From a virus, in IMG/VR virus record IMGVR_UViG_3300020183_000011: a stretch of 64,000 bases of DNA; one strand, 5' to 3'. The stretch's first letter is position 1; each line of letters begins with the position of its first letter. The position numbers and the translations under genes were made by a program. Below, piece by piece: positions 31,983-60,550 of the stretch. The notes under the pieces were generated by a model. That model did no database searches, had not been told where the DNA came from, and saw nothing but the letters and a program-made list of their open reading frames with translations.

Positions 31983-32262
31983 GTACGAGACTGGTCCATA
32001 CGACGTCAATTCTTATTATATCACATACACAGAAGGCAAGTATGCAGGAGTAAAGATAGTACTAGGCGCAGTCAAGTTCGTTGAGAACGTAGAGAAAGAT
32101 AACTGTACTTTAAAATATAACTATGATATAATTGATGGTATAGTTGAAGAGTCTGATAAGAAGGACTTTGATATATACATTGGAGACACCTTGATGCAGA
32201 TGTTATCTGACGGTGTTAAGAACAACGATTTAGTTTATACAGGCGGTGTTGATGAGGATTGA
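31966..32262 (+). CDS. Small protein at the gp40 position
   Basis: Lies between uvsX and 41. Confidence 0.5.
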   Translation: MLHKIKYETGPYDVNSYYITYTEGKYAGVKIVLGAVKFVENVEKDNCTLKYNYDIIDGIVEESDKKDFDIYIGDTLMQMLSDGVKNNDLVYTGGVDED

Positions 32263-33640
32263 AGACACAATCTTAAGTAATTTGATTCACAACGAAGAGT
32301 ACTGTCGTAAGGTATTGCCATTCCTTAAGAAGAGATACTTCTCTGAACGTAAGGATGCTATGGTGTTTGAAGAGATCAATAGGTTCTTTAACACTTACAA
32401 TAAGCCAATCACCAACGAGATCCTTCAGATCGAGGTTGGCAATCGTAAGGACATGTCAGACACAGACTTTAATGAAACAATGATAGCTGTCAAGAACCTT
32501 ACAAAACAAGATACAAATGAGGAGTGGTTGTTAAATGAAACGGAAACTTTTTGCAAGAAGAAAGCAGTATACAATGCCATACTCGACTCCATCGCGATCA
32601 TTGATGGAAGAGATAAAGAAAGACAAGATGACGCTATTCCATCGTTACTATCAGATGCTCTTGGCGTTAGTTTCGATAATCATGTTGGGCATTCCTATCT
32701 TGCTGATTCTGATGCACGCTATGAGTTCTATCATAAAGTAGAAGAGAAGGTTAGGTTCGACCTTGACATGTTGAATAAGATCACTAAGGGTGGTCTAAGT
32801 AACAAGACATTAAACGTAGTGCTTGCAGGCACAGGTGTAGGTAAGTCATTATTCATGTGTCATTGTGCCGCGGCAAACTTACTAGCAAATAAAAATGTAT
32901 TGTATATAACCATGGAGATGGCTGAAGAACGTATCGCAGAACGTATCGATGCAAACTTACTTAACCTCTCTATGGATGAGTTAAAGGTGGTCGATAAACC
33001 CATCTTTGATAATCGGTTAGATAAGGTCAGGAAAAAGTCTGAAGGTAAACTTATCATCAAGGAATACCCAACTGCCGGTGCCCATGCTGGTCATTTTAGG
33101 GCATTACTTGAAGAGTTAAAGCTTAAACAAGAGTTTACTCCTGACATTATCTACATCGATTATCTAAATATATGTAGTTCACAACGACTTCGATATGGGG
33201 CTAACGTAAACAGTTATACCTATGTCAAGACGATTGCTGAAGAACTAAGGGGTTTGGCAGTTGAGTATAATGTACCTATAGTGAGTGCCACACAGACTAC
33301 TCGGTCCGGTTTTACGAATTCCGACCCAGGTCTTGAGGACACATCCGAATCCTTTGGTTTGCCAGCAACTGTTGATCTCATGTTAGCTTTGATATCTACA
33401 GAAGATCTTGAAGCTCTAGGTCAAATCATGATCAAACAACTTAAGAATAGATACAACGACCCATCTTATTACAAACGATTCGTCATCGGTGTTGATAGGT
33501 CTAAGATGAAGCTATTTGACGTGGAAGTATCGGCACAGACTAACATAGCAGATGCAGGTCAAGACGATAAGCCTGTGTTTGATAAGTCTGAGTTTGGCCG
33601 GCGATCCAACGCCGAAGGGTTTACTGGATTCAAGTTTTAA
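32252..33640 (+). CDS. 41: Replicative helicase gp41
   Basis: AGTGVGKS, ITMEMAE, IDYLN, SATQTTR, QLKNRY. Confidence 0.97.
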   Translation: MRIEDTILSNLIHNEEYCRKVLPFLKKRYFSERKDAMVFEEINRFFNTYNKPITNEILQIEVGNRKDMSDTDFNETMIAVKNLTKQDTNEEWLLNETETFCKKKAVYNAILDSIAIIDGRDKERQDDAIPSLLSDALGVSFDNHVGHSYLADSDARYEFYHKVEEKVRFDLDMLNKITKGGLSNKTLNVVLAGTGVGKSLFMCHCAAANLLANKNVLYITMEMAEERIAERIDANLLNLSMDELKVVDKPIFDNRLDKVRKKSEGKLIIKEYPTAGAHAGHFRALLEELKLKQEFTPDIIYIDYLNICSSQRLRYGANVNSYTYVKTIAEELRGLAVEYNVPIVSATQTTRSGFTNSDPGLEDTSESFGLPATVDLMLALISTEDLEALGQIMIKQLKNRYNDPSYYKRFVIGVDRSKMKLFDVEVSAQTNIADAGQDDKPVFDKSEFGRRSNAEGFTGFKF

Positions 33641-33680: not shown

Positions 33681-34670
33681 ATGGACATCATATCATTTAT
33701 AAAAAAATCTCTAGCACAAGTTACAGTAACTGCAGATAAAAAAGATATTGTAGTTAAATCAAAGGATAGAGAAAAGACTAAAGCAGCTCTAGAGAAGGCT
33801 CTTAAAGCCAAGAACATAAAGTTTAAGAGTGTATTTAAGAAAAGTAAATCTTCAAGCTTAGACGTGCTTGAGGTCTCTGGCTATGCTGGCGATATCATAT
33901 TTAAACCAATCATTCAAAAGGGAGCTGGAGGGGTTGGTTTCGAAAAAGAACTTAAACTCGATCTTGAAAACTACTTTAATGGTGCAAATAAAAAAGACCT
34001 AAAACATGGAGATGTTTTAGCTGAGCTAGAAAAAGTATTAAAGATGACCCAGCGTTCAGGATACAAAGTAATCCATGAAGGATCTAAAAATCAAAAGAGA
34101 CTATTAACATATTCTCCAGGTAAACTATCAGTAAGTAACTCGACAGGAGTTACACTAACAGACTTAACTTTAGAAAAGGCTGGCAAAAAAGTATACCTAT
34201 CTCTTAAGATGTCTAAGTCATACTATATCTTATCAGCATCTATATTCAATTACTTTTTAGATAAAAAACTTAACTCATCACTATGCGAGTATTTAGGACT
34301 TGATGGGGCAATGATGGGTGGGTTTGGTAAAGAGTATTATTGTGTTACTAAAAAACCAAACTATAATAGAGTAAGAGCAAACATAGAAAAATTCTTGTCT
34401 GTAGCTTATGGTTCAAACGTAGTTATAGTTCACAAGAAGATGATGAACAATGTCATGGTATCTGATATCAAGTCATCAGCTTCAGTTAAGGTATCAGATC
34501 TTGATGCTGAATCATATATCTATCCTGAAGTAGGTAAACGTAAGTATGCTGCCATCAAATTTAACGCTGACATCAATAAGCATAAATATATAGTTAATTT
34601 CCAATTTCGTGGAACCACGGCCACTGACACGGGCCCTAAATACCTCAGGATTTTAATGGAAAGGTTGTAA
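33681..34670 (+). CDS. Late hypothetical protein, restriction-endonuclease-like PD-(D/E)xK pattern
   Basis: GFEKEL...TDLTL...YLSLK; TATAAATA directly upstream. Confidence 0.45.
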   Translation: MDIISFIKKSLAQVTVTADKKDIVVKSKDREKTKAALEKALKAKNIKFKSVFKKSKSSSLDVLEVSGYAGDIIFKPIIQKGAGGVGFEKELKLDLENYFNGANKKDLKHGDVLAELEKVLKMTQRSGYKVIHEGSKNQKRLLTYSPGKLSVSNSTGVTLTDLTLEKAGKKVYLSLKMSKSYYILSASIFNYFLDKKLNSSLCEYLGLDGAMMGGFGKEYYCVTKKPNYNRVRANIEKFLSVAYGSNVVIVHKKMMNNVMVSDIKSSASVKVSDLDAESYIYPEVGKRKYAAIKFNADINKHKYIVNFQFRGTTATDTGPKYLRILMERL

Positions 34671-34746: not shown

Positions 34747-35364
34747 ATGCTCAATTTTAAAGAATATATAAAAGAACAACAGGAATTTAAGCCAGGTTAC
34801 CTAACCATATTTGACATAGATGACACTCTATTCCATACGACTGCCAAGATCATAATACGTAAGTCTGGTAAGGCTATAAAGAAGCTTACTAGTGGTGAGT
34901 TTAATACCTATAAATTAGGTCCTGGAGAGTCCCCAGACTTCTATGAGTTCGAAGATGCAGAGAAGTTCAATAAAGAATCTAAGCCAATCACTAAGATGTT
35001 TAATAAGGCTAAGGCCCTCTTAGCTGATACCAAGAAGCATCCAAACAACAAAGTAATCATAGTCACAGCAAGGCCAAACCTAGACGATAGGGAAACCTTC
35101 TTAAATACATTTAGGAAGTTTAACTTTGACATCGATAAGGTTCGAGTAGAAAGGGCTGGAAGGATCAGTTCTTTAAACGCGGCCCAAAGTAAAGCTGTCA
35201 TCATCAATAACTACTTGAAAACAAAACAGTTTGACAAAGTTAGGCTGTTTGACGATAGTATAAATAATCTTAATGAGTTTCTCAAGTTAGAGAAACATTT
35301 CCCAAGCATTAAATTTACTGCTTGGCATGCACATACAGATGGGACAGTGAGACAAGTCAAATGA
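34747..35364 (+). CDS. HAD-family phosphatase (PNKP-phosphatase-like) with a capsid-targeting-like N-terminus
   Basis: FDIDDTL, VTAR, K, FDDS; starts MLNFKEYIKE. Confidence 0.8.
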   Translation: MLNFKEYIKEQQEFKPGYLTIFDIDDTLFHTTAKIIIRKSGKAIKKLTSGEFNTYKLGPGESPDFYEFEDAEKFNKESKPITKMFNKAKALLADTKKHPNNKVIIVTARPNLDDRETFLNTFRKFNFDIDKVRVERAGRISSLNAAQSKAVIINNYLKTKQFDKVRLFDDSINNLNEFLKLEKHFPSIKFTAWHAHTDGTVRQVK

Positions 35365-36545
35365 TTAAGTTTACAGAATTCTTAACAGAAGCCGCAGATG
35401 ACGGCAAATTAAAGCATATCCACCATCCAGAGGATCGTCCACTGATGCATGGTAAAAAGGGGTTTGAACATGCCTTTGGTGCTTTAAGTCAAGCACATGA
35501 ACACTTAAAGTCTGGTAAGAAGAGCACTGATATGACCATGAAGTATGATGGCTCTCCAGCTATTGTATTCGGTCATCACCCAAAGACAGGTAAGTTCTTC
35601 GTAGCTTCTAAGTCTGCATTCAACAAGAACCCAAAGATTAACTATTCTTTAGAAGACATCGAACGTAATCACGGTCATGCTCTAGGTCTTGTACAAAAAC
35701 TATCTGCAGCATTAGAACACCTACCTAAAGTATCACCTAAGAAGGGTGTATTCCAAGGTGACATGATGTTTAGTCACGGAGATGTGGTGCATAACCCAAA
35801 CGGATCAGCTTCATTTACACCGAACACCATCACTTACTCTGCTCATGGTACAGAAGCTAACAATATTAAGAAAGCAAAGGTTGGTGTAGTCGTACACCAA
35901 CAGTATCGTGGATTAGATTTACATACTATGAAGGCTAGTCCTAATATCGAACATAAGTTTAAAGCACATCCAGATGTATGGCATAAAGGTGCAGAACATG
36001 ATACATCGTTCACTAACTACTCGCCTAAGTCACAACTAGAATTTAATAAACACATGGAGAAAGCTAAGGCTATCCATGATACACATCATAAGACGATGTA
36101 TCCGCTTACAGAGCCTCATCATGGAGAAGGCGGCCATCTAGCTACATATATAAACAAAACGGTCAGGAACGATGAGAAGCCAACACCACGTGGCTTTCAA
36201 CAGCATATCCTTGACAGATCACAAGCATCACAAGATAAACTTAAGACTGCTGCAGCTGCACAGAAGAAACAAGCTGAGGCAAGATCACACGTTGATCATA
36301 TACAGAAAAACAAAGAACACTATGATAATTTATTGAAGATGCACCAGCATCTAGCAGCGGCAAAGAACACGTTGGTGTCAGCGCTTAATGCCCATCCCGG
36401 TACATTAAGTCATCATATCAATGGTAAACCAACTGCACCTGAAGGTTTTGTAGTACACCATCAGAACGAGCCAACTAAGTTGGTTAATCGAGCAGAGTTT
36501 AGTAAAGCAAACCTTTTAAAAGGAAAAAAGAATGTTAACATTTAA
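35361..36545 (+). CDS. DUF6267-like protein, RNA-ligase/ATP-grasp nucleotidyltransferase-like
   Basis: KYDGSP, FVASKS, FQGDMM, EGFV, KLVNR ligase-like motif series; starts MIKFTEFLTE. Confidence 0.65.
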   Translation: MIKFTEFLTEAADDGKLKHIHHPEDRPLMHGKKGFEHAFGALSQAHEHLKSGKKSTDMTMKYDGSPAIVFGHHPKTGKFFVASKSAFNKNPKINYSLEDIERNHGHALGLVQKLSAALEHLPKVSPKKGVFQGDMMFSHGDVVHNPNGSASFTPNTITYSAHGTEANNIKKAKVGVVVHQQYRGLDLHTMKASPNIEHKFKAHPDVWHKGAEHDTSFTNYSPKSQLEFNKHMEKAKAIHDTHHKTMYPLTEPHHGEGGHLATYINKTVRNDEKPTPRGFQQHILDRSQASQDKLKTAAAAQKKQAEARSHVDHIQKNKEHYDNLLKMHQHLAAAKNTLVSALNAHPGTLSHHINGKPTAPEGFVVHHQNEPTKLVNRAEFSKANLLKGKKNVNI

Positions 36546-36822
36546 AGAGTATCTATTAGAGTATGCGATCGACGCTAAAGGTCATAAGTCTTCTACAGGC
36601 GGGTTGACTAAGAAAGGTGTTGATGCATACAACAGAGAAAACCCTGGCAGCAACTTAAAGATGGCCGTAACTACAAAACCATCTAAGTTAAAACCTGGAA
36701 GCAAAGCAGCAGGCCGACGTAAGTCATTCTGTGCTCGTATGGGTGGAGTCAAAGGCCCAATGAAGGACGAGAACGGTAAACCAACAAGGAAGGCACTTGC
36801 CTTAAGGAAATGGAATTGCTAA
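36532..36822 (+). CDS. DUF6321-like small basic protein
   Basis: GGLTKKG, RRKSFCARM, LRKWNC; starts MLTFKEYLLE. Confidence 0.65.
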   Translation: MLTFKEYLLEYAIDAKGHKSSTGGLTKKGVDAYNRENPGSNLKMAVTTKPSKLKPGSKAAGRRKSFCARMGGVKGPMKDENGKPTRKALALRKWNC

Positions 36823-37421
36823 ACTTTAAAGAATACTTAAAAGAAGAAACTGATGCTAAGCACCATGTCTTAGCATTTGGTCGTATGAACCCACCTACAA
36901 CTGGTCATATGAAGGTGATTGATAAGGTGCACGATGTTGCGGCTAAACATAGCGCTAGTCATGGCGTCGTTACTTCACATAGCCAAGACAAGAAGAAAAA
37001 CCCTTTGACTGCTGCACAAAAGTTGAAACATTTAAAACGTTATTCTCCACAGACAAACTTTAAAGCATCATCTCCTGAGAGTCCAACTATACTACATCAT
37101 GCTGCTGATCTACATAAGAAAGGTATAACACACTTACATGTGGTGGTTGGTTCTGATCGTAAGAAAGAGATGCATGATTTACTACATAAGTATAATAATA
37201 AAGAATCTGGTCATGGTCATTATAACTTTAAGAAGATAACTGTACATTCTGCAGGTAGTAGAGACCCAGATGCTGAAGGTACTAGTGGAGTATCAGGTAC
37301 TAAACAAAGAGAACATGCCGCGATAAAACACTTTGACAAGTTTAAGAAGGGCGTGCCTTCACATGTATCAGATGCACACGCTAAAGAATTAATGCACGAC
37401 GTACACCATGGGATGAAATAA
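36810..37421 (+). CDS. Cytidylyltransferase-like (HIGH-superfamily) nucleotidyltransferase
   Basis: FGRMNPPTTGH, KNPL, VVGSDR, SGTKQR; N-terminus (L)LNFKEYLKE. Confidence 0.85.
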   Translation: MELLNFKEYLKEETDAKHHVLAFGRMNPPTTGHMKVIDKVHDVAAKHSASHGVVTSHSQDKKKNPLTAAQKLKHLKRYSPQTNFKASSPESPTILHHAADLHKKGITHLHVVVGSDRKKEMHDLLHKYNNKESGHGHYNFKKITVHSAGSRDPDAEGTSGVSGTKQREHAAIKHFDKFKKGVPSHVSDAHAKELMHDVHHGMK

Positions 37422-38006
37422 TGAAACAACTAATCTTAGCATCACTATTATTAACTGGCTGTAGCTTCATCATGCCAGTACCACATGATCCAGCCGAAGC
37501 TGCAAAGCTCGTGGATGTTAAACAGAAGATGGAGACTCTAACCTGTGATGCTACAAAGGACTTCCCAAGATGGCAGTCAACCGTAGACGACCTTAGATGG
37601 TTAAACCTATACACAGAGTTTAGAGCAGACCCACAAGCAAAGACTATTGAGGAACTATATTTCGCAATCCAAAAGGCTAGGGACGGTTCAGTACCTTACT
37701 GTGAAGCCGCTTTAAAACTACAAAAGACTCGTATTCAAGTAATCGAGAAAGCATGGAAAGGAAGGTAATATGTCAGTATTAGACGACTTAAGAACGGCAA
37801 TGAAAGAGCCAGGCATCAAAGGTGCATTGGCCCAACAACTACATGACATCACAGAACAATACAATGATGGCATCCTTACAGAAGCTGAATTTAAAGACTT
37901 GGTAGAACAGATTGCTGATGTCCAAGCTAACGATGAGCTTGCAGGAGATGAGGTAACTTCAAGATGGGTCGTAAATATAACTAAAGTGATTCTCTCGGCC
38001 GTATAA
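37421..38006 (+). CDS. Lipoprotein (37421-37768) and small helical protein (37770-38006)
   Basis: Lipobox LTGC; adjacent ORFs. Confidence 0.55.
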
Positions 38007-38038
38007 ATAATAGTAATACCTTATATAGATGGAATAAA

Positions 38039-39712
38039 ATGAAGAACTATAGACAGCTTATCAAAGAACTGCCTTCCAAGACGCTTATAATGTCTGTTGG
38101 AAGCTTTAACCCGCCTACTCTCCAAAGCGAGATGGCTTTCAAGCTAGTCGAGAAGCTAGTTGAGACTCATAATGCTGACCATGTCATATACGTGACAGAG
38201 GAAGCAAACAACCTCCCAGTAGACAGAAAGATACACTTCCTTGATCTCATGTTCAATAAGTTAAACTTTCGTCCATTGTCAGAGGAGAAGCTAGTATCAG
38301 AGATCGGTAAGTTAAAGTCAAGGTATAAGAACGTCATCGTAGTTACTTCAGAAGACAAGTCTAAGCTATACGAGTCAATGCAAGTGGTATCCACAGGATA
38401 CCCTGACGTAGAAACACCTAAGCTCCGTTCAATGGTTACCAAAGGTGACTATCAAACATTTAAGAAAAACCTCCCGTCCTCAGTAAGAGACATCGATGCA
38501 AGACGCATGATGAACGAAATGAGACAAGCTCAAGGGCTTGAGTTCATCAAGGAAGACGTTAAGTTCTCTGTAGACATGTTAAGAGACAAGTACTTTAAAG
38601 GTGAGATCTACCACATCGGTGACATCGTTGAGTCTGCTGGACAACAATATGAAATCATGGACCGTGGATCAAACTACCTAGTGGTCGTCAATAACACAGG
38701 TGACTTATCACGTAAATGGGTAAAAGACGTGACTCTAGTCGAAGCATGCTGGAAAGGCTATAAAGCAAAAGGCCTCAAGAAAAAGGGCAACAAGATGGTG
38801 CCTAACTGTGTACCTGAGGAAGTCAAAGAAGACACAGACCCACAAGTATCCTATAAAGGATACACTACAAAGAACATGCATCACAGCGCTGACTTAGCTA
38901 AGACATTCAAGCTCGCTTCAGCAGACGCTAAGGATCCAATAGCTATGCTTAATGCTATCAAGACTACAGACACATACTTAGAGCTACATAACGATAGAGG
39001 TGATAATCCTACACTCGACCAGCTCAAGACATGGAAACATGCACACATCAAAGCTAAAGAAGCCTTACAAAAGATCGGTCACTTTGATGCACACCAAGAA
39101 CACTGGCTACAAAGCTCAGAAGCTCTAGACAAGATGTTGATACCTCATGCTTCGAAGTTAAGAGAAGAGTTAGACATCGGTAAGCATAGTAATCAAAACA
39201 TCGAGCGTTCTGTAACCATGTTCCAAAACTTCATGAAGATGGGTAAAAAAGAACCTGGCTTCATCAAAGACCCTAAATCAGGCGACTTAGCTAAACCTAT
39301 AGAGCCAAACGTTAGTCAACAGATAGATGACTTAGAGCCAAATTGGCCAAGACATGTACAGACAAAAGTTGGTCATACGTTAGCTACGCGAGACCACCTT
39401 CGCAGACAAAAAGTGCAATACGCTACAGAATCTACAAACATATTGGTAGGTGACATGATGGATGAGGACTTTGCTGTTAAGTTTTCTGAAAGTCATGGCG
39501 GAGAAGTAGGAGACGGTATAGGAGATGAAGACATAACGAAAGTTAAGTCGATACCACCACACCTTGTACCTAAAAAAGAATTCGGTGATGTTTCTAAACA
39601 AAAGGGTAAAGGGTTCTCTGCATTGTTTAATGGCAAAGAGAACGTGGACTTTGACTTTCAAACATTTAAAAACTATAGGTTGCAAAGAGAACAAGGAAAA
39701 AAGAATAAATAG
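38039..39712 (+). CDS. Degenerate cytidylyltransferase-like domain fused to further modules (including CWKGY...VPNCVP)
   Basis: GSFNPPTLQS lacks the His; LR..Y..GEI..IGD SH3-like block; starts MKNYRQLIKE. Confidence 0.65.
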   Translation: MKNYRQLIKELPSKTLIMSVGSFNPPTLQSEMAFKLVEKLVETHNADHVIYVTEEANNLPVDRKIHFLDLMFNKLNFRPLSEEKLVSEIGKLKSRYKNVIVVTSEDKSKLYESMQVVSTGYPDVETPKLRSMVTKGDYQTFKKNLPSSVRDIDARRMMNEMRQAQGLEFIKEDVKFSVDMLRDKYFKGEIYHIGDIVESAGQQYEIMDRGSNYLVVVNNTGDLSRKWVKDVTLVEACWKGYKAKGLKKKGNKMVPNCVPEEVKEDTDPQVSYKGYTTKNMHHSADLAKTFKLASADAKDPIAMLNAIKTTDTYLELHNDRGDNPTLDQLKTWKHAHIKAKEALQKIGHFDAHQEHWLQSSEALDKMLIPHASKLREELDIGKHSNQNIERSVTMFQNFMKMGKKEPGFIKDPKSGDLAKPIEPNVSQQIDDLEPNWPRHVQTKVGHTLATRDHLRRQKVQYATESTNILVGDMMDEDFAVKFSESHGGEVGDGIGDEDITKVKSIPPHLVPKKEFGDVSKQKGKGFSALFNGKENVDFDFQTFKNYRLQREQGKKNK

Positions 39713-39715
39713 AAA

Positions 39716-40168
39716 ATGGACAAACTAATAGCATCTTTAAAAGTAATCCTTGGTAATACGTTCGTCATGTATTTCAAGACCCATTCATATCATTGGAACG
39801 TTGAAGGCATAAACTTCAGTCAGTATCATGACTTCTTTGCCACGATCTATGAAGACTTATATGGTGCTGTAGACCCATTTGCAGAAGAGATTAGAAAGCT
39901 AGATACTTATGCTCCTATCAGCTTGATGGAGTTATATAACTATAAGACTATCACAGAAGACGCTACAAAACCAACAACTATCCATGAGATGTTAGTCAAC
40001 TTGTTGATGGCAAACACAGAATTATTATCTGCTTTGTCTGCAGCCTTTGATACAGCTACAGCTGAAAAACAACAAGGCCTTGCAAACTACATAGCAGATC
40101 GTATGGCCGCACATAAGAAACATGAATGGATGTTAACAGCATCACTTAAGAACATTGGAGGAGTGTAA
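39716..40168 (+). CDS. dps: Dps-family ferritin-like protein
   Basis: HSYHWNVEG..F...HDFF..IYE, D..AE.IR, H.KHEWML. Confidence 0.93.
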   Translation: MDKLIASLKVILGNTFVMYFKTHSYHWNVEGINFSQYHDFFATIYEDLYGAVDPFAEEIRKLDTYAPISLMELYNYKTITEDATKPTTIHEMLVNLLMANTELLSALSAAFDTATAEKQQGLANYIADRMAAHKKHEWMLTASLKNIGGV

Positions 40169-43100
40169 TGAAGACGCTAAAAGAGTTTAACTTACAGATA
40201 AACGAAGTATTAAGAGCATCTGATCCCATTGATAAATGGATCTCAGACTTCGTACACTCTAAGAATGCTAAGTTTGCTGGTAAGACTACTAAAGAACGCA
40301 TCGAGATGGCAAAAGGTGCATACTATGGTGCACAAAAACATAGGATGACTAGAATGGAATCGGTAGCAGTATCGCAAAATAGTACAGCTAAAGTAGATAT
40401 GAGAGAAGCCGCGCGTGAACATTTAGTACATGTTAACGATGGTTCTAAGTATGACGAAGAGCCTCATGAAAAAGATGTAGAGCATATCATGGCTGGTGTT
40501 AAACAACATGGTGGTGAACACGCTGGTGCATCTGACAAAGGTGTATTCTTTAAGTTCAAATCAAAAGAACATGCTGATGCATTTAAAGCTCATGCCAATA
40601 AATGTCCTAATAAATCATGCGACGCAGAGCATGTTACAGAAGGATATGAGAATGACATGGTTGATAAGAAAAAGGTATTGAACCCTCCAATTCCACTAAC
40701 ACAAAAGAAAAAGGCTGTTAAAGACTTCCTCAAGAAAGAGGAAGCAGAACTAGACGAAGGTAAAGTATACGACCCTATCACTAAGAAGATGGTAGCTAGT
40801 AAACCTATCAAAGTTCAAGCTGGTGGAGGTGCTACAAGAAACGGTGTTCCTGTAGAGACTGGTCCATCTAAATACAAGAGTAAGCTGCCTATGAGTAAAG
40901 CTGCTGCAGTATTAGCTGCAGAAGAGATAGGAATAGATGAAGGCGATAACGGTTTAGCAGCAAAAGCTAAGAAGTCTGGTGTATCCTTATCTACACTCAA
41001 GACAGTATACAAGAGAGGCGTAGCCGCATGGAACTCCGGTCATCGTCCAGGTACAACGCCTGCACAATGGGGTATGGCACGCGTTAACTCATACATCACA
41101 AAGGGTAAAGGTACATATCACGGAGCCGATAAAGACCTACGTGAAGACGCACGTCTTGATAAGAAAGAATACCATAAAGGTATGAGTGCTGCTACCGCAA
41201 AAGCTCGTGTAGCACATTGGAAAAAAGCAGATAAGATGTCTGACAGCAATCCAAAGGCATATAAGCCAGCACCTGGTGACAAGACTGCAAAGACTACACC
41301 AAGCGTACATACTAAGAAGTACCATGCTATGTACGGAGAAGCTAAAGAAGGTAAAAATAAGTGGCACATCTATGATACTAAGACAAGAGAAGTTCATAGT
41401 ACATATAATAATAAGAATGTAGCCATACGTAAGTATGAAGAACTAAACGATAAGCATAAGGGTTATGATAGTCCAGGTGGTTTAGTACACTCTAAATATG
41501 GTCTTAGACAAGAGCTACAGAAAGAAGAGACAGAGATCAATGAGATATCTAAATATACATTAGCTAGATATATCGATAAGGCTGCACAAGACGTACATGA
41601 TAAAGCTTTAGCTGCTGGTTCACATCATGGCGGTAAGAGCTATAAAGAATTCATGAAGAACTATACTAAGTCTGGTAAAAGACAAGCTGGTATCACTAGA
41701 GCTGCAGTTAAGCTTGCTACACAAAAAGAAGAGGTACAAGTAGACGAAGCTATCGCTAAGAAGTTGCCAGTACAGCATGCAGTGAATGCTGTAACTAAGA
41801 CATTAGGTTCACAAGCTGCTACAAGGTTCTTAGGTCATCTAAAACCTGGTACAGATAAACATACATCATGGGATAAAGTAAACGATGCTTTGATGAAGCA
41901 AGGTGTACAAACACATCACATCGCTTCTATAGCACAAAAGACTTCTCATGAAAACATGAATGAATCAAGAGGTCATAAAGTATTAGCAACGTTCTTTAAG
42001 AACAGAGAAGTTGCACAAAGAGCTTTTACTGGCCAAAATCAACCTAAAGCTGCTGAACCAAAAGAAACTGATAAAAATAAGTTGCCTATGAGTAAAGCTG
42101 CAGCAGTATTAGCAGCAGAAGATCAATACACTTCAGAGTATAAGATCAAGTATTATGTAGACCCGATTACTGGTGAGAACAAACAAAGAAAGATTAGGCC
42201 TCACCGTGTCAACTTTAAAAACAGTAAGATGCATGGAGAACCAGTACAACAAGATGCACAAGCAGATTACGGCATGAAAGAAGGATATGTAGCAGAAGGT
42301 GGTTTCGATAACTATCATGAGATAGCTAAGGAACTTGTTAAACGTCATGGTAAGAACGTTGATTCTGGTCATATCAATGACATAGCTGGCGAGAGAGATA
42401 CTCACAGAGGTCTTGATCATTCCGAAGTCATGCATCATGTTAACAAGATACTAAACAAAGAAGTTAAAGAAGGTGATGAGTATGATGAAGTATGGAAAGA
42501 ATACAAAGGAAAAACATTTAAAAAGGAAAGTCGTATGATTAATTTTAAAGACTACTTAAAAGAAGCTTTATCAGCTAAACAAAAGAAGATCGCTGCTATC
42601 GCTGGCGATAAAGATAAGATCGATGCTGATGATCTAGCTGCTTTAAGAGCTGGTAAGAAGCCTGTAGAAGAAGCTAAGAAGTGCATGGACGAAGATGACA
42701 TGGACGAATCAGGTCTTCGTATGGCTGCACACGCGGCTCATAAAGCTGGTAAGAAAGAGTTTGAGTTTCAAGGCAAGACTTATCCAGTTAAAGTACAAAA
42801 AGAAGGCGTGTTAAAGCCTGAACTTGAAAAAGGTTTCCCTGCACGTGGTGTAAAGACTGGTGCTTCTGCCCCAAAAGGTACAACATACATGCCTAAGAAA
42901 AATGTTAAAGAAGAAGTAGAACAGATCGACGAGTTATCTAAGAAGACACTAGGTTCTTATGCGCATAAAGCTGTCGATGACACGCAAGATAAAGTTCATG
43001 ATGCTTATGATTCAGGAACACCAACAAGACATGAACTTGAGGTGCAAGGTGGAAAAAATAATGATGGAAAATACGGATATAAACCTCTTCAAAATAGATT

Positions 43101-43791
43101 AACTGGTGTAGCAAGAGCTGCAAAAAGATTAGGTGATAAAGAAATTTCTAAGCGCACTGAAAAATCAGTAGCTCACCATCTTAAACAAAGATATCATTAT
43201 GATAATATGGATGATAGAAAGGCAGCCAATTCTGATAATGCTGCACGTCATCAATATTATCGCGCAAAAGATCATATTGAAAAAGCTTCAGGAGTTAAAG
43301 AAGAAGTAGAGTTAGACGAAGGTCGCATGAAAGAACTTGCAATGGATCTTAAAGATATGAGCCATGACGAGTTTCATAAACATTATGGTAAGCCTAAATC
43401 ATACTATGATCCATTAAACTTCAAGAAGCCAGTACAAAAAGGCCATGAAATGGATCGTGCTAAAGCTTTAGCTCAACGTGGTATCCAATCTTTATCTAAA
43501 GAAGAAGTAGAACAAGAAATGTCACCATACCTAAAAGCAACACTTGCAGTTATGGATGAATCAAAGTACGACGATTATAAAGATGCATTAAGATCTAAGA
43601 AAGCTACTCAATCTGCATATGATAAAGACTTTAAGCCAGACACAACTCATCCACATATTCAAGTGGTTAAGGGTACACAGTATGGCGGAGAGAACCAAAA
43701 AGATGATGACTATGATGAGAAGCCTGATGAACCAAAAGAGAAGCGCGGACGTGGCAGACCAGCGGGATCTAAGTCAGGTGCTAGAGTATAA
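40168..43791 (+). CDS. 1207-aa modular protein; probable internal head polyprotein (contains a DUF5824-like module)
   Basis: MKTLKEF start; basic modules separated by acidic EEVELDE-type linkers; VYKRGVAAW...HRPG...QWGMARVNS module. Confidence 0.7.
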   Translation: MKTLKEFNLQINEVLRASDPIDKWISDFVHSKNAKFAGKTTKERIEMAKGAYYGAQKHRMTRMESVAVSQNSTAKVDMREAAREHLVHVNDGSKYDEEPHEKDVEHIMAGVKQHGGEHAGASDKGVFFKFKSKEHADAFKAHANKCPNKSCDAEHVTEGYENDMVDKKKVLNPPIPLTQKKKAVKDFLKKEEAELDEGKVYDPITKKMVASKPIKVQAGGGATRNGVPVETGPSKYKSKLPMSKAAAVLAAEEIGIDEGDNGLAAKAKKSGVSLSTLKTVYKRGVAAWNSGHRPGTTPAQWGMARVNSYITKGKGTYHGADKDLREDARLDKKEYHKGMSAATAKARVAHWKKADKMSDSNPKAYKPAPGDKTAKTTPSVHTKKYHAMYGEAKEGKNKWHIYDTKTREVHSTYNNKNVAIRKYEELNDKHKGYDSPGGLVHSKYGLRQELQKEETEINEISKYTLARYIDKAAQDVHDKALAAGSHHGGKSYKEFMKNYTKSGKRQAGITRAAVKLATQKEEVQVDEAIAKKLPVQHAVNAVTKTLGSQAATRFLGHLKPGTDKHTSWDKVNDALMKQGVQTHHIASIAQKTSHENMNESRGHKVLATFFKNREVAQRAFTGQNQPKAAEPKETDKNKLPMSKAAAVLAAEDQYTSEYKIKYYVDPITGENKQRKIRPHRVNFKNSKMHGEPVQQDAQADYGMKEGYVAEGGFDNYHEIAKELVKRHGKNVDSGHINDIAGERDTHRGLDHSEVMHHVNKILNKEVKEGDEYDEVWKEYKGKTFKKESRMINFKDYLKEALSAKQKKIAAIAGDKDKIDADDLAALRAGKKPVEEAKKCMDEDDMDESGLRMAAHAAHKAGKKEFEFQGKTYPVKVQKEGVLKPELEKGFPARGVKTGASAPKGTTYMPKKNVKEEVEQIDELSKKTLGSYAHKAVDDTQDKVHDAYDSGTPTRHELEVQGGKNNDGKYGYKPLQNRLTGVARAAKRLGDKEISKRTEKSVAHHLKQRYHYDNMDDRKAANSDNAARHQYYRAKDHIEKASGVKEEVELDEGRMKELAMDLKDMSHDEFHKHYGKPKSYYDPLNFKKPVQKGHEMDRAKALAQRGIQSLSKEEVEQEMSPYLKATLAVMDESKYDDYKDALRSKKATQSAYDKDFKPDTTHPHIQVVKGTQYGGENQKDDDYDEKPDEPKEKRGRGRPAGSKSGARV

Positions 43792-43820
43792 ATAACTAAT
43801 TACATTTAAGGAGTAATAAA

Positions 43821-44747
43821 ATGGCTTTATGGGGAAAATCAGATACTTTAGCGGCATCGCCAAAGTATGTAACTAGAAAGGCGGTGTTCGATGCGCAGAG
43901 CAAAGTTAGTTCAGCAAATGACACTATCGATCTATCAAGTGCAAATACAAATTTTTCAACAGGTGATGGCGTTGTTTACACTGGTGCTAGCGGCATTGGT
44001 TTAACACAAGACACATCATACTATGTGATGAGACAAACAGATAACACAATTAAGTTAGCAACTACAGAAGCTGGCGCTAAAGCTGGTGCAACTGGTATTA
44101 ACCTAACAGCTGGTGCAACAGGTGCTATTGGTTTCTTACAACGTAATGCTGAAGGTAATGAATCTACTGCAGCAGGTAACGGCGACCATATCAACAACGG
44201 AAGCGACCTCTACTTCATCGATGCTGACGAAGCTCAACAAGCAGAGAACAAAGCTCGCGGATTAACAGGTCCTGGTTGGTGGTTATATCGTTCATGGACA
44301 AATGCAGACGGTTCAGTACAACATAGAGCAGAATGCTTGATCGCTATGGGCGCATACTCAGGTGCTACAGGTGTTGGTACATACCAAGCTCAAACTGGTG
44401 ATGCTTCAGATGATTCAGTTTTAGTAGATGCTACAGTATCTATTACTACACAACCATCTAATGTTTCTGTAACTGCTCCAGCTACAGCTTCATTCTCAAT
44501 AGTTGCTGCAATTGCTGGCGCTGGTTCATTGACATATCAATGGCAAATCCAACAATCAGGTGTTGGTGCATTTGCTGACGTAACTACTGGTTCAGGTGGC
44601 ACAACTGCTACATATACAACTGCTGCAACTGCAGTAGCTGCAGGAGCTGGTGCTACAAACGGTGATAAGTTCCGTTGTATCGTTGGTGCTTCAACAGGTA
44701 ATACAGACGTTACATCTAATGCTGTAACATTAACAGTAACAGCTTAA
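43821..44747 (+). CDS. Virion structural protein with a C-terminal Ig-like domain
   Basis: MALWG start, PGWW, ITTQP...LTYQWQ...FRCIV...SNAVTLTV; late promoter and TAAGGAG SD. Confidence 0.75.
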   Translation: MALWGKSDTLAASPKYVTRKAVFDAQSKVSSANDTIDLSSANTNFSTGDGVVYTGASGIGLTQDTSYYVMRQTDNTIKLATTEAGAKAGATGINLTAGATGAIGFLQRNAEGNESTAAGNGDHINNGSDLYFIDADEAQQAENKARGLTGPGWWLYRSWTNADGSVQHRAECLIAMGAYSGATGVGTYQAQTGDASDDSVLVDATVSITTQPSNVSVTAPATASFSIVAAIAGAGSLTYQWQIQQSGVGAFADVTTGSGGTTATYTTAATAVAAGAGATNGDKFRCIVGASTGNTDVTSNAVTLTVTA

Positions 44748-44781
44748 TAGAGTAGGGGAGGAAACTCCCCCCTCTTTTAAT

Positions 44782-45737
44782 ATGAACCAAGTGTTGACAG
44801 AAGATAATTTTTTACAGTATGCTATGCATCATTATGACAATAGCCAATGTTATTCGTTGGAAGAGTTTAATGATGACTTAAAGAGGTTTTTATATCTTAA
44901 GAAGTTGTTTAGTAGATATAAACATGAGTGTGATTTAAAAGAGAACTTAATACTAAATCATCTCATAGTAATCTATAACATATTTGGAGATAGTTCTACT
45001 AATATGTTGTTCTTTAAGATAGAGGAAGAGTATTGGGACACATTAGTAACTTTCTTGGTATTCCTTAACAGGATGCCTGAAGATATACCTCAATACGGAA
45101 TAAAATTATCAGAGATTAAACTTGACGATCATATTATACAAACGCTTAGGAAGATTTAATGTCGCAAGTAATAGATAACATAATAGCTTACAAAGTACTC
45201 ACCATGTTGGTTAAACCCTTCAGGGAGACTGATGCCTATAGATTGGGCATCATCGATGCAAAAGGAAAAAATCTCATAAAGCCTTCTGTTCTTTCCTCAC
45301 AGGAAGAAAAGAACTCTTACACGTTCCTACATCGATTAGTCTTTAACATGAAAAAGATAATCAACAAACTGCCGGGTGGAGAAAGTAAATTAAAGAGTCT
45401 AGCTGCGGCTTTCTTTTTAATCAAAGAATACTATGAAAATAATACTCGTTCTACATCGATGATGGAGGAAAAGTATAATAAACTAATAGAGTCTAATGCG
45501 ATACTAGCAGAAGAAACTATTATCATAGAGAAGTACATGAAAGACATAGATGAAGATGGTGGTGCGGGTGGCGTTTCTGGAGGAGGTGGAGCTAGCGCTG
45601 CTCCAGTTGCAAACGTAACAGGCTCGATGGTATCTACAGACATCCCATTACCTAAAAAGAAAGATTTAGAAAAATACAAGAAGACGAATCAAGCTGGTGT
45701 TGTAGCTATGACTCGTCGTAACAATAAGGTGTTATAA
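44782..45737 (+). CDS. Two conserved T4-like hypothetical genes (44782-45159; 45159-45737)
   Basis: AMHHYDN...LILNHLIVIYNIFG; AYRLGIIDAKG...HRLVFNMKK. Confidence 0.7.
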
Positions 45738-45738
45738 T

Positions 45739-46344
45739 ATGTGGTTATTGAGCTTATTACCAGATAGTTTACTCTATGGATTTATCCTATCTGTCATGGG
45801 TATCGGAGCAGCACTCTTTATATTTGGTACGTTTACAGTATTCCTGCCTCTAGTTAAAGGTTGGGGTATGTTGATGAGAACGATCGGTACATTACTATTG
45901 ATAGGTAGCGTATACTTATATGGTGGTTATGGTACAGAGATGAAGTGGAGAGCTGAAGCCGCTAAACTAAAAGCAGATATGGATCGTAAGGTCGCATTAT
46001 CTGAAAAGAATTCAAAACAAGTAGTCACAAAATATATTGAAAAAGTAAAGGTAGTTAAGGAGAAAGGTAATGTCATTATTAAAGAAGTCCCTAAATATAT
46101 CACTAAAGATGCTGACGCTAACTGCGTTGTGCCTAAGTCTTTTGTCTTGCTCCACGATTCTGCCGCAAAAAATGAAGTTCCCGACTCCACCCAAGGAGTT
46201 GATGGAGCCGCCAGCGGAACTAAACTCTCTACCATCGGAGAAACAATAACGATCAACTACAATAACTATCATCAGTTATCAGAAAGATTGAAAGCGTTAC
46301 AAGACTGGGTTAGTTCACAAGAAAGAATCTATAATGGCAAATGA
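45739..46344 (+). CDS. Membrane protein, i-spanin-like
   Basis: N-terminal TM helices; IIKEVPKY...C.VP..FVLLHD.AA; LKALQDW. Confidence 0.5.
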   Translation: MWLLSLLPDSLLYGFILSVMGIGAALFIFGTFTVFLPLVKGWGMLMRTIGTLLLIGSVYLYGGYGTEMKWRAEAAKLKADMDRKVALSEKNSKQVVTKYIEKVKVVKEKGNVIIKEVPKYITKDADANCVVPKSFVLLHDSAAKNEVPDSTQGVDGAASGTKLSTIGETITINYNNYHQLSERLKALQDWVSSQERIYNGK

Positions 46345-46717
46345 TTTAGAACAGTTAGAACGTATAGTCGAAAAGCTAGATATATCGATAGATAAGCTTA
46401 CAGAAGTTAGCAATAACGTAAGTAAGTTACTAGCAGTGCATGATACTAGATTAAACGTCATAGAGAAAGATACCGTGCGAAACGAAGACGACATACGAGA
46501 TATTCATGTAAAGATGGATAATATAGCTAAAGAGATCAATGCAAAGTTGGACGAATCTATGCGTAGTAGTGTAGAGGGCCATGCTAAGATCCAAGCTGCT
46601 ATCGAAGACAAGCTTAAAGGCATCGATGCCCGCGTACGAGTATTAGAAGTATGGCGTTGGTTAGTTATTGGCGGTGCACTTGCTATTGGATACCTAGTTA
46701 ATAAGTTGTATAAATGA
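46334..46717 (+). CDS. Coiled-coil protein with a C-terminal TM helix
   Basis: LAVHDTRL; LEVWRWLVIGGA. Confidence 0.55.
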   Translation: MANDLEQLERIVEKLDISIDKLTEVSNNVSKLLAVHDTRLNVIEKDTVRNEDDIRDIHVKMDNIAKEINAKLDESMRSSVEGHAKIQAAIEDKLKGIDARVRVLEVWRWLVIGGALAIGYLVNKLYK

Positions 46718-47421
46718 AAACCCTTAATGAATTAAAGCTTCAATTACAATACCATAAACAGTTAAATCCAAAGTTATGGGACGGCTTTGTATTGAAACCT
46801 CAGATCAGAGCAAAGCTATTACAGTTCGCAGAAGTATGGAGAGAATATGCTAAGATTCCTAAGTCAGCTGTTAAAGAAGTTATCATGCTCGGCGGAAACG
46901 CTAACTACAATTACACTGATAAGTCTGACATTGATGTACATGTGGTTGTTGATAAGTCTTTAATATCTAAAGATAACCCATTACTAGACGACTACCTACA
47001 AGATAAGAAACAGATGTGGACTATGGCACATAAGATTACCATTCTTGGATATGGGCTAGAACCATATGCACAAGATATATCGGTTGAATATCCAAAACAA
47101 CAAGGCGTCTATTCATTGACAAAGGATGAATGGCTAGCAAAGCCAGAATTTGTTGGTGATGATATGTTGAAAGACCCATACCTTAAGAAGAAGGTTAAGT
47201 TCTATATGAAGATGATCGACGACATGATTAAAGGCCATGTTGATATTGATTCAGTAAAACACTTCAAAGAAAAACTCAGAGACATGCGTGGAGTTGCTAT
47301 TAAGAAAGGTGGAGAGTTCTCATTCGAAAACCTAGTATTTAAAGAACTACGCAATCAAGGCTATTTAGACAAACTATCAGTATACCAAAGAACAGAACAA
47401 GACCAAGCATTAAGTTTATAA
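46714..47421 (+). CDS. Pol-beta-superfamily nucleotidyltransferase
   Basis: LGGNANYNY...SDIDVH, EPYAQD, GEFSFENLVFKELR; starts MKTLNE. Confidence 0.8.
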   Translation: MKTLNELKLQLQYHKQLNPKLWDGFVLKPQIRAKLLQFAEVWREYAKIPKSAVKEVIMLGGNANYNYTDKSDIDVHVVVDKSLISKDNPLLDDYLQDKKQMWTMAHKITILGYGLEPYAQDISVEYPKQQGVYSLTKDEWLAKPEFVGDDMLKDPYLKKKVKFYMKMIDDMIKGHVDIDSVKHFKEKLRDMRGVAIKKGGEFSFENLVFKELRNQGYLDKLSVYQRTEQDQALSL

Positions 47422-48723: not shown

Positions 48724-49737
48724 ATGTTATACATCGATTCTAAATACGTAGGACAAATCTCCTACAAACTCCGTAACTTTAAAAAGAAAGCCGACTACTA
48801 TTGGAACTTTAGTTGTCCGATATGTGGTGACTCAAAGAAAAATACTTTAAAAGCTCGCGGATATGTATTTAAAAATGATAATAGATTAGTATACAAGTGC
48901 CATAATTGTGGTATATCAACTTCTGTAGGTAACTTGATAAAGCAATTAGATCCTATCATGTATAACGAATACGTGTTAGAAAGATATAAAGAATCAACTT
49001 CGCACCACACACCTCATGCCCAGCTTAAATTGGAGACACCTACTGTTTCCGTTGAGTTAAAAGATAATATATTAGATAAGTTGGATCCGATAGAAGTATT
49101 ACCTATCAGTCATCCAGCAATACAGTACCTTATATCACGTAAGATACCTAAAGATAAATGGAAGTTACTTTATTACACAGATACATTTAAAGCATACACT
49201 AATTCTGTAAAGTTTCATTTCACAAACACCAAAGACGATCATCCTCGTATCGTCATACCATACTTTAATGAACATGGTAAAGTATTTGCGTTTCAAGCTA
49301 GAGCACTTGGCGGTGAACAACCTAAGTATTACTCTATTAAGATAGACGATAAAGAAGAGAAGATCTATGCTTTAGATCGTGTAGATTATTCTAAGAGGAT
49401 ATATGTTACAGAAGGTCCTATCGATTCTTTATTTGTGCCTAACTGTATAGCAGTCTCAGGCGCATCATTTGATACACCAACTATTAAATCATTAGCTAGC
49501 AATGCTACGCTTATCATGGATAATGAACCAAGGTCTAAAGAGATATGTAAGTTCATAAACAAGTTGATTGAATCCAATTATACAGTATGTCTATGGCCTG
49601 ACACAGTAAGAGAAAAAGATATCAATGAGATGATCATGGCTGGTAAGACTATCGAGTCAATCATGGACACTATAAATACAAATACATTCCAAGGAATGGA
49701 AGCAAAGCTTAAATTTACACAGTGGAGAAAGTGTTGA
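48724..49737 (+). CDS. 61: DNA primase gp61
   Basis: CPICGDS, CHNCG, TEGPIDS, DNEPR, KDINEM. Confidence 0.97.
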   Translation: MLYIDSKYVGQISYKLRNFKKKADYYWNFSCPICGDSKKNTLKARGYVFKNDNRLVYKCHNCGISTSVGNLIKQLDPIMYNEYVLERYKESTSHHTPHAQLKLETPTVSVELKDNILDKLDPIEVLPISHPAIQYLISRKIPKDKWKLLYYTDTFKAYTNSVKFHFTNTKDDHPRIVIPYFNEHGKVFAFQARALGGEQPKYYSIKIDDKEEKIYALDRVDYSKRIYVTEGPIDSLFVPNCIAVSGASFDTPTIKSLASNATLIMDNEPRSKEICKFINKLIESNYTVCLWPDTVREKDINEMIMAGKTIESIMDTINTNTFQGMEAKLKFTQWRKC

Positions 49738-59761: not shown

Positions 59762-60550
59762 ATGATGATAAAATCATTAAAACTTTTTATCATGATTTTA
59801 TTATTAAGTTTCAATGCATGGGCTGCAGACAATAGTATCTACATTGATCAAAGTGGTGATAACAGCACCATCGATGTGATACAAACTGGTGCAGGTAACG
59901 TCATACGTGGCATACAAGGAGTTGGTACAGGTAACACAACACCAGCAAAGATGTATGGTAACAACAGTGTAATCGATATCCAACAAATTGGTAGTACTAA
60001 CACATTAAACTTAGGTTTAAACGTAAGTACAGCAGTTGGTCGTGCGTATGGTATCGACTTAACATACTATGTAACTGGTAATAATGGTACAGCAACCATC
60101 AACAGTAACAATGCTGGTTCAGGTACAAGTGGAAGTAACTTCATAGATGTGCGTCAAACTGGTAACAGTGCAAGCATTAACTTGAACGTATTAGGTAGTA
60201 AGAATGACTTTACTGCTGTTACATCAGGTGGAGCTTCTAACAGTATCACTGCTACTATTAATGCAAACGAGACAGTAAGTAATATTAGTATGACTGGTGG
60301 TGCAAGTAATACATTTACTGGTACTCTTAGCAGCAACAAAGGTCAAGTTAACGTAACTACTGTTGGCGCAAGTAATGGTGTGACACTATCGCAAACTGGT
60401 ACTGCTGGTATTAATGGTCATGAATTTACACTAAACCTAACTGGATCTAGTAACACGTTTGGTGTTACTCAATCTGGAACTATTGACACAACAGTTAATG
60501 TATTGAGTTCTGGAAGCGGTAATACATGGAACATTACTACTGGAAATTAA
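59762..60550 (+). CDS. Curlin-repeat (CsgA/CsgB-like) secreted protein
   Basis: Signal peptide; repeated Q-x-G-x-x-N units (NSIYIDQSGDNSTIDVIQTGAGN); Gly/Asn/Ser/Thr-rich. Confidence 0.75.
   Translation: MMIKSLKLFIMILLLSFNAWAADNSIYIDQSGDNSTIDVIQTGAGNVIRGIQGVGTGNTTPAKMYGNNSVIDIQQIGSTNTLNLGLNVSTAVGRAYGIDLTYYVTGNNGTATINSNNAGSGTSGSNFIDVRQTGNSASINLNVLGSKNDFTAVTSGGASNSITATINANETVSNISMTGGASNTFTGTLSSNKGQVNVTTVGASNGVTLSQTGTAGINGHEFTLNLTGSSNTFGVTQSGTIDTTVNVLSSGSGNTWNITTGN

Follow-up and report, generated by a model that had tools for sequence, protein, structure and literature searches.

Unrelated Enzymes of an Aquatic T4-Related Phage Share an N-Terminal Motif Resembling the T4 Capsid-Targeting Sequence

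Why should a phosphatase-like protein, a ligase-like protein and a nucleotidyltransferase, encoded side by side in a phage genome, begin with nearly the same ten amino acids (aa)? The question is raised by a 64,000-nucleotide stretch of viral DNA (IMG/VR virus record IMGVR_UViG_3300020183_000011; hereafter the window), a one-strand gene array that encodes a clamp loader, DNA polymerase, UvsX, a gp41-type helicase (32246-33640), a gp61-type primase (48724-49737) and NrdAB. Its source is a T4-related aquatic myophage, Kyanoviridae-like and very distant from the T-even phages. The genes in question form a cluster in the helicase-to-primase interval, and a first-pass annotation had proposed that their shared start is a capsid-targeting sequence (CTS) like that of the T4 internal proteins, so that the proteins would be packaged and injected with the DNA. 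Our comparisons suggest that the shared N-terminus is probably a portable T4-type capsid-targeting propeptide and that the proteins bearing it are likely packaged. Because a T4 head-loading tag sits on several unrelated enzymes, these enzymes are probably carried in the particle.

Unrelated Neighboring Genes Open with the Same Motif

The proteins that carry the shared N-terminus (hereafter the tag), a close variant of it or a divergent leader are encoded as follows.

34747..35364, plus strand: HAD-type (DxDxT) phosphatase-like protein, 205 aa, tag MLNFKEYIKE (34747-34776); weak match to phrog_415 (polynucleotide kinase family), E 2.3e-6
35361..36545, plus strand: DUF6267 protein, 394 aa, tag MIKFTEFLTE (35361-35390); Pfam DUF6267, 3.2e-97
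36532..36822, plus strand: small basic DUF6321 protein, 96 aa, isoelectric point (pI) 10.2, tag MLTFKEYLLE (36532-36561); Pfam DUF6321, 2.2e-24
36816..37421, plus strand: HIGH nucleotidyltransferase ("cytidylyltransferase"; hereafter the transferase), 201 aa, TTG start, tag LLNFKEYLKE (36816-36845); PF01467
38039..39712, plus strand: 557-aa protein with a degenerate HIGH-transferase N-domain, tag variant MKNYRQLIKE (38039-38068); phrog_395, phrog_3041
40168..43791, plus strand: basic multi-module protein of 1207 aa, leader MKTLKEFNLQINE (40168-40206); DUF5824 at residues 267-325
42535..42564, plus strand: internal tag MINFKDYLKE, in frame at residue 790 of the 1207-aa open reading frame (ORF)
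46714..47421, plus strand: pol-beta-type nucleotidyltransferase (NTase)-like protein, 235 aa, short leader MKTLNE before an LKLQLQYH block; phrog_36119, 3.4e-74, and weak PF01909

The strict motif M-x-x-F-x-E-[FY]-[IL]-x-E opens four neighboring genes, those for the HAD-type phosphatase, DUF6267, DUF6321 and the transferase. Another copy is found within the 1207-aa ORF, and the 557-aa protein starts with the close variant MKNYRQLIKE. Used as a regular expression on the 95 ORFs of the window (20,479 aa), the strict motif returned six matches, whereas residue shuffles gave 0.46 and never more than 3; five of the six fell within the cluster and four exactly at residue 1. Across the five N-terminal tags and the internal one, position 4 is F or Y and position 7 is F or Y (L in the 557-aa protein), and every one of these six tags, strict or near-strict, has L or I at position 8 and E at position 10. 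That unrelated proteins open with the same motif, as first proposed, is thus confirmed, and at a frequency far above chance.

The first-pass annotation had listed seven members of this set. Four of them (HAD, DUF6267, DUF6321 and the transferase) proved to be strict matches and the MKNYRQLIKE protein a close variant, but the N-terminus of the 1207-aa protein, MKTLKEFNLQINE, and the MKTLNE leader of the pol-beta NTase fell outside the strict motif. These two keep just the (L/I)xE part, at shifted positions, and their orthologues carry canonical tags (MKSYKDMINE in the case of the 1207-aa protein). Going by its leader, the NTase of the window is an uncertain member of the set. The DUF6267 gene begins at ATG 35361, coupled to the HAD stop codon as ATGA, and not at TTG 35322, where the longest-ORF call had placed it; the TTG start of the transferase at 36816 is supported because its orthologues have ATG at the same codon.

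Conservation and Modularity of the Tag

A near-identity DNA search of the phage collection with the window returned no match. At the protein level, its relatives are Kyanoviridae and their allies, namely the T4-like cyanophages, Pelagibacter phage HTVC008M, Methylophilales phage Melnitz and Stenotrophomonas phage DLP6. We followed the tag through orthologues drawn from 80 related IMG/VR loci, and two relatives with essentially complete genomes, G001 (160 kb) and G002 (174 kb, with terminal repeats), were used for a whole-genome census of tags.

The DUF6267 tag was present in all 79 of 79 orthologues. Among 45 distinct DUF6267 N-termini, M1, F4, F/Y7, L/I8 and E10 were 100% conserved and positions 2, 5 and 6 varied freely, while seven different codons were used at L/I8 and two at E10 with the residue kept. 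Judged from these alignments, conservation of the tag is acting at the level of the protein. The tag was also found on 34 of 37 DUF6321 orthologues, 38 of 50 transferases and 13 of 18 orthologues of the 557-aa protein (some of the last being canonical, e.g., MKQFKEYLKE), and it was still present on orthologues with as little as about 35% identity. The HAD tag is lineage specific (3/13 orthologues), the G001 orthologue starting without it. No tagged orthologues were found for the helicase, UvsX, Dps or six further neighbor families in the same 80 loci.

When the whole DUF6267 family was represented by clusters at 50% identity, 62 of 150 representatives were tagged, and many others began directly at a conserved KLKHLEH block. 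Homologues of the pol-beta NTase carry leaders such as MKHYSGFLNE, MLNFKEYVTE and MITFKEYLTE directly before a conserved [LM]K[LI]xLQYH block, and some start exactly at this block, with no leader. As these N-termini align, the tag is modular, in that roughly half of the DUF6267 and NTase members are untagged and begin right after the predicted cut. In cyanophage P-HM2, both DUF6267 and the transferase are untagged. Tags of Melnitz proteins read MQGFKTFLSE, LINFSKYITE and MKKFSEIIE.

In the census of G001, every N-terminal tag lay inside this cluster. Its five strict matches were on DUF6267, DUF6321 and proteins of 590, 860 and 363 aa, the last of them His-rich, and a looser variant was found on the transferase. 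In G002, three of four N-terminal matches were within the cluster. The motif is thus not equally frequent in non-virion genes, a possibility that the first-pass annotation had itself raised. A literature search of open-access text returned no description of a CTS in cyanophages, in marine T4-like phages or for DUF6267, and the presence of such a predicted tag on these families outside the T-evens is apparently undescribed in that literature.

Correspondence with the T4 Capsid-Targeting Sequence

The T4 internal proteins ipII and ipIII both start with MKTYQEFIAE, which bears out for these two the comparison on which the original proposal was built. Targeting by the T4 CTS is governed mainly by residues 4 and 7 and processing by residues 8 and 10 (PMC9026906, reviewing Mullaney and Black 1996), and the sequence is removed by the prohead protease gp21 (PMC9026906, PMC3012670). 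The invariant positions of the DUF6267 tag coincide with these key positions 4, 7, 8 and 10. In T4 itself, an Asp at position 10 prevents processing and leaves targeting intact. As a positive control, the same N-terminal regular expression was run over all 267 T4 ORFs, and it returned only ipII, ipIII and gp61.1.

Like the CTS of T4 IPII and IPIII (that of IPI is similar; PMC9026906, PMC3012670), the tag is a ten-residue leader with M1, aromatic residues at 4 and 7, an aliphatic residue at 8 and Glu at 10. Both sit on unrelated, mostly basic proteins encoded by hyperplastic genes, with cargo that varies between relatives, and both belong to phage lineages that encode a protease of the gp21 type and a scaffold, here a putative one, rich in (L/I)xE. 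The tagged proteins here have pI values of 8.7 to 10.2, and three of the four untagged cluster neighbors are acidic (pI 4.2 to 5.4). The two systems differ in what they would carry: T4 CTS cargo consists of small inhibitor proteins, whereas the predicted cargo here consists of mid-sized to large enzymes and a 1207-aa multi-module protein. Here, moreover, one tag is internal, at a putative fusion junction, and packaging and cleavage are predictions.

A gp21-type protease, which might act on such tags, is encoded by relatives of the source phage. Peptidase_S77 (gp21; PF03420) was found in G001, G002 and Melnitz with E values of 1e-33 to 3e-38, and the scaffold-like G001 proteins flanking the protease contain 5.2 and 6.2 (L/I)xE sites per 100 aa versus a proteome mean of 1.0. 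In T4, the maximum density of this site (5.95 versus 1.23) falls in a 269-aa ORF at 104117-104926, which we take from its position to be probably the gene 22 scaffold. Because relatives have both a gp21-type protease and (L/I)xE-rich proteins beside it, cleavage specificity seems to be retained in this lineage.

Tagged Homologues in Cyanophage Virions

The gene order helicase, DUF6267, cytidylyltransferase, virion structural protein, primase is common to the window, Melnitz, HTVC008M, P-HM2, S-SM1 and S-SZBM1, and published proteomes exist for virions of the last two. In purified S-SM1 virions, the putative cytidylyltransferase T4-GC190 was detected with 25 peptide counts (Sullivan et al. 2010, PMC3037559, Suppl. 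Table 8), together with GC1453, GC1454, GC1455, GC425 and GC426 (PMC3037559). These six proteins correspond to SSM1_188, 190, 191, 192, 195 and 197, all in the syntenic gp41-gp61 interval. The S-SM1 transferase, to which that of the window is 39% identical (E 6e-38), starts with MKKFSAFLNE, and GC1455 starts with MLSFKELQE.

Virions of S-SZBM1 likewise contain the cytidylyltransferase (S-SZBM1_140) and the product of the adjacent gene (PMC9146016), and this transferase starts with MRFRQFIIE, the tag pattern being shifted by one residue. The DUF6267 homologues of S-SM1 and S-SZBM1, which are untagged, are absent from the published lists of detected proteins. Cytidyltransferases have been described as frequently detected in cyanophage virions and perhaps carried into the cell (PMC10665884, on S-CREM2).

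The enzymes detected in virions (S-SM1 T4-GC190, S-SZBM1_140 and S-CREM2 ORF154) are homologous to the transferase of the window and share its gp41-gp61 position, and those of S-SM1 and S-SZBM1 are tagged alike. They differ from it in their context, since the papers report detection with no targeting signal and with doubts about contamination, whereas in the window the tag is also present on DUF6267, DUF6321, the HAD protein and others. Taken together, the key positions, the modularity, the restriction to the cluster, the protease in relatives and mass spectrometry of cyanophage virions give indirect support to the earlier proposal that these proteins bear a T4-type N-terminus for capsid targeting and are likely packaged.

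Proposed Packaging and Its Alternatives

If the tag works as the T4 CTS does, aromatic positions 4 and 7 would dock tagged proteins onto the prohead scaffolding core during head assembly, and a gp21-type prohead protease would then cut after Glu10, at the (L/I)-x-E of positions 8 to 10. The mature, mostly basic enzymes would remain in the head beside the DNA and leave it at infection. The predicted cargo would comprise DUF6267, the transferase and its long paralogue, DUF6321, the HAD phosphatase, both halves of the 1207-aa protein and possibly the pol-beta NTase. We infer docking, cleavage, retention and injection in the source phage, as well as any early function that the enzymes may have in the host cell. 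The T4 internal proteins and Alt provide an analogy that makes injection plausible. Alt, an ADP-ribosyltransferase, shows that an enzyme can be loaded into a T4-type head, shortened by gp21 and passed to the host at infection, although it uses its own propeptides instead of an IP-type CTS and is unrelated in sequence and fold to the enzymes described here.

Alternatively, the tag could be a docking or regulatory peptide that works in the cytoplasm, either holding an enzyme complex together or directing its bearers to a protease of the phage or the host that would degrade them at a set time, with detection in virions reflecting co-purification. The enzymes are functionally linked, with fused forms that join DUF6267 to the transferase in phrog_455 and the transferase to DUF5824 in phrog_3041; Melnitz and HTVC008M have the latter fusion. 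Given that some homologues lack the tag, it is dispensable for catalysis, and co-purification is a concern raised by the S-CREM2 authors themselves. However, the conserved positions match the mapped T4 CTS positions one for one, with the protease site included, and two proteomes detect the tagged transferase but not the adjacent untagged DUF6267. Detection of six genes from one syntenic interval in S-SM1 virions would also be hard to obtain by chance co-purification. We consider such a cytoplasmic role of the tag unlikely.

It is also conceivable that the tag is a protease-removable propeptide and nothing more, that is, a zymogen-like lock or processing signal for a gp21-type or other Glu-specific protease, with no part in targeting, head retention or injection. 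Positions 8 and 10 do form a canonical (L/I)xE site, the repeated EExE[LI][DN]E sites of the 1207-aa protein resemble polyprotein junctions, and the shortened NTase leaders MKTLNE and MKITLKE retain the cleavage part only. Yet the aromatic residues at 4 and 7, which are irrelevant to cleavage in T4 but needed for targeting, are 100% conserved. Gp21-type proteases act inside proheads, and therefore a substrate must first get there, which makes a propeptide with no targeting role improbable. More improbable still, to the point that we rejected it, is a resemblance at the level of nucleic acid or by chance, through a translation-initiation region common to the genes, a recombination hotspot at which gene starts are duplicated, or AT-rich composition bias. 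The codons are AT-rich (AAA, GAA, TTT) and the genes adjacent, and T4-like phages are known to shuffle modules at gene starts (PMC4122927, PMC2839356). This reading is contradicted by the synonymous-codon and residue-shuffle tests: the DNA upstream of the tagged genes is unrelated, tag codons differ synonymously, the invariant residues are encoded by seven codons at L8 and two at E10, the shuffles gave 0.46 matches against 6 observed, and the tag persists to about 35% identity.

Capsid targeting thus accounts best for the tag, but several observations weigh against it. The protease has been seen in relatives only, and the window lies outside the head module. The virion data come exclusively from cyanophage homologues; the correlation between tag and virion detection spans two proteomes and could be explained by abundance, and the S-CREM2 authors caution that abundant non-structural proteins may co-purify (PMC10665884). 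The S-SM1 virion proteins GC1453 and GC1454 have no canonical tag, and therefore proteins must also be able to enter the particle without it. The HAD tag is found in just 3 of 13 orthologues, and the NTase leader of the window is shortened. Avoidance of internal (L/I)xE sites, which would be expected of cargo that survives the protease, was not seen in the transferase and DUF6321 families. It was apparent in the DUF6267 family outside the tag (0.20 per 100 aa versus a background of 1.13; observed/expected, 0.35), and it was also clear in the window, where the five smaller tagged proteins have two sites outside the tags, but we dropped this depletion as evidence because the other two families do not share it. 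Finally, 10 copies of the T4 late-promoter box TATAAATA were counted in the window versus 7.9 expected, which is not above chance, and because this count is not significant we drew nothing from it about the timing of expression.

If capsid targeting is the function of the tag, the pattern M-x-x-aromatic-x-x-aromatic-[LI]-x-E at a gene start would predict capsid-borne proteins of aquatic T4-like phages, and it would account for the recurring "cytidylyltransferase" in cyanophage virion proteomes. The T4 targeting and processing code would then be conserved across the deep split between T-evens and Kyanoviridae-like phages. The capsid-targeting system of T4 is known; what would be new is enzyme cargo in a distant aquatic lineage, a previously unrecognized class of injected enzymes whose early role could be tested in the culturable phages Melnitz, HTVC008M and S-SM1. 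The tag would also offer a natural means of loading foreign proteins into marine phage capsids.

The Predicted Cargo

Of the domain assignments for these proteins, DUF6267, DUF6321 and CTP_transf_like proved solid, and HAD and NTP_transf_2 were weak matches. The HAD-like protein has the sequence DIDDT at residues 23-27, and its sole Pfam match, DUF2608, scored 19.5 bits, below the cut-off of 22.6. Sequence searches of the PDB with DUF6267, the transferase and the HAD protein returned only noise.

The AlphaFold2 model of DUF6267 is confident (pLDDT 94.2), with residues 1-12, which include the tag, disordered. When the model was compared with known structures by VIA-align, RNA ligases filled most of the non-helical top rows, with 180 to 205 aligned residues and Z scores of 7.1 to 8.5, a range that is not decisive by the calibration of the tool. 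The individual scores were 8.5 for the Naegleria nick-sealing ligase, 7.9 for REL1, 7.9 for Trl1, 7.5 for T4 Rnl1 and 7.3 for Rnl2, and about 6.5 for DNA ligases. Foldseek returned no match for the model at E <= 0.001, and its weak matches were mostly ligases. In 72 DUF6267 sequences at 34 to 75% identity, K61, D63 and G64 (KxDG, motif I) are invariant or nearly so. Near the C-terminus, a conserved E361-G362-x-V364 is followed by K373...R377, which is the right order for motifs IV and V if the residues are assumed to correspond.

The model resembles RNA ligases (the Naegleria Rnl5-type enzyme 5cot, Trypanosoma brucei REL1, fungal Trl1 and T4 Rnl1/Rnl2) in that it aligns to their adenylyltransferase domains and has an invariant KxDG, together with EGxV and K..R toward its C-terminus. 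It differs from them in having no sequence-level match to solved ligases and in a helical insert of about 120 residues (222-343). These comparisons suggest an RNA-ligase-like nucleotidyltransferase fold, and because the Z values are middling we call the protein ligase-like and have not filed it as a ligase.

The transferase matched PF01467 (CTP_transf_like) at 31.3 bits against a cut-off of 21 (2.6e-7), TIGR00125 at its cut-off, and the cytidyltransferase families phrog_3041 and phrog_395. Residues T28, G30 and H31 of its (T/H)xGH motif are invariant. Its AlphaFold2 model (pLDDT 90.5) gave Foldseek probabilities of 1.0 to PPAT, NMNAT/NaMNAT and FAD synthetase about equally (E about 3e-4), and the predicted fold is PPAT/NMNAT-like and Rossmann-like. 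The 557-aa paralogue contains a 25-residue Cys/Trp motif (CWKGYK...VPNC) at residues 236-260 (38744-38818) that is 64% identical to a segment of the virion-detected S-SZBM1_139. The same motif recurs in the Melnitz transferase and in several PHROGs with no assigned function.

In G001, two separate genes take the place of the 1207-aa ORF, and both have an N-terminal tag of their own. A 907-aa protein of G001 aligns to residues 1-663, and the 860-aa protein, which starts with MLKFNDFLKE, aligns to residues 891-1207. The tag at residue 790 fits a gene-fusion junction, where it might survive as an internal start or a cleavage site. The ORF also contains five near-identical acidic linkers of the form EExE[LI][DN]E (residues 195, 256, 457, 920 and 1049), each ending in (L/I)xE. 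Their form and repetition suggest a polyprotein that would be cut by a gp21-type protease.

What might such a set of enzymes do on arrival in the host? The ligase-like and NMNAT/PPAT-like predicted folds are compatible both with RNA end repair and with NAD or nucleotide chemistry. One could imagine the RNA-ligase-like protein, the HIGH and pol-beta NTases and the HAD phosphatase being pre-loaded, by means of an ancient tag of aquatic T4-like phages, to act in the first seconds, before phage gene expression, either resealing RNA or tRNA cut by anticodon nucleases, or rebuilding or neutralizing the nucleotide cofactors and signals of abortive infection. We offer this role, which the first-pass annotation had also suggested, as a tentative and rather doubtful one.

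Genomic Neighborhood

The slot after the helicase is filled differently in the window and in G001. In G001 (59924-61624, minus strand), the HAD gene is the first after the helicase and is untagged, and an unrelated tagged protein of 363 aa follows; in the window, the helicase gene is followed by that of an untagged 329-aa protein and then by the HAD gene with its tag. Because both the slot order and the tagging differ, cargo and tag placement both appear to have been shuffled between close relatives. We dropped the 329-aa protein (33681-34670) from the set, since it is untagged and not homologous to the tagged proteins of 350 to 360 aa found at this position in G001, Melnitz and HTVC008M.

The untagged members of the cluster are as follows.

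37421..38006, plus strand: lipoprotein-like ORF of 115 aa (signal peptide ending LLLTGC; 37421-37768) and acidic ORF of 78 aa, both untagged
39716..40168, plus strand: Dps/ferritin-like protein, untagged; PF00210, 1.7e-21; 0/11 orthologues tagged
43821..44747, plus strand: head protein with Ig-like C-terminal part, untagged; phrog_613 head protein, 1e-34

The first two of these ORFs served as internal negative controls, with tags on 0 of 10 lipoprotein-like and 0 of 11 78-aa orthologues (pI 8.4 and 4.2, respectively). The head protein is similar to S-SZBM1_136, annotated as a "virion structural protein" (8e-22), and its N-terminus resembles that of T4-GC425, one of the proteins found in S-SM1 virions by mass spectrometry.

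All ten TATAAATA boxes lie on the coding strand (e.g., at 35259, 38002 and 43787). Three are 34 to 100 nucleotides upstream of cluster genes, namely those for DUF6267, the 557-aa protein and the head protein.

The T4 protein gp61.1 (NC_000866, 18966-19130, minus strand; 54 aa), which our positive control returned beside the internal proteins, starts with MKTFKEFIKE and is encoded in T4's own gene 41-gene 61 interval. It matches positions 108-154 of phrog_2086, of which a window protein encoded at 45159-45737 matches positions 5-108. We do not claim homology between the two, as they cover complementary halves of the family and have no direct BLASTP similarity.

The tagged proteins can also be unusually rich in histidine, which makes up 9.6% of DUF6267 and 12.3% of the transferase versus 2.5% for the proteins of the window, and the tagged 363-aa protein of G001 is His-rich as well.

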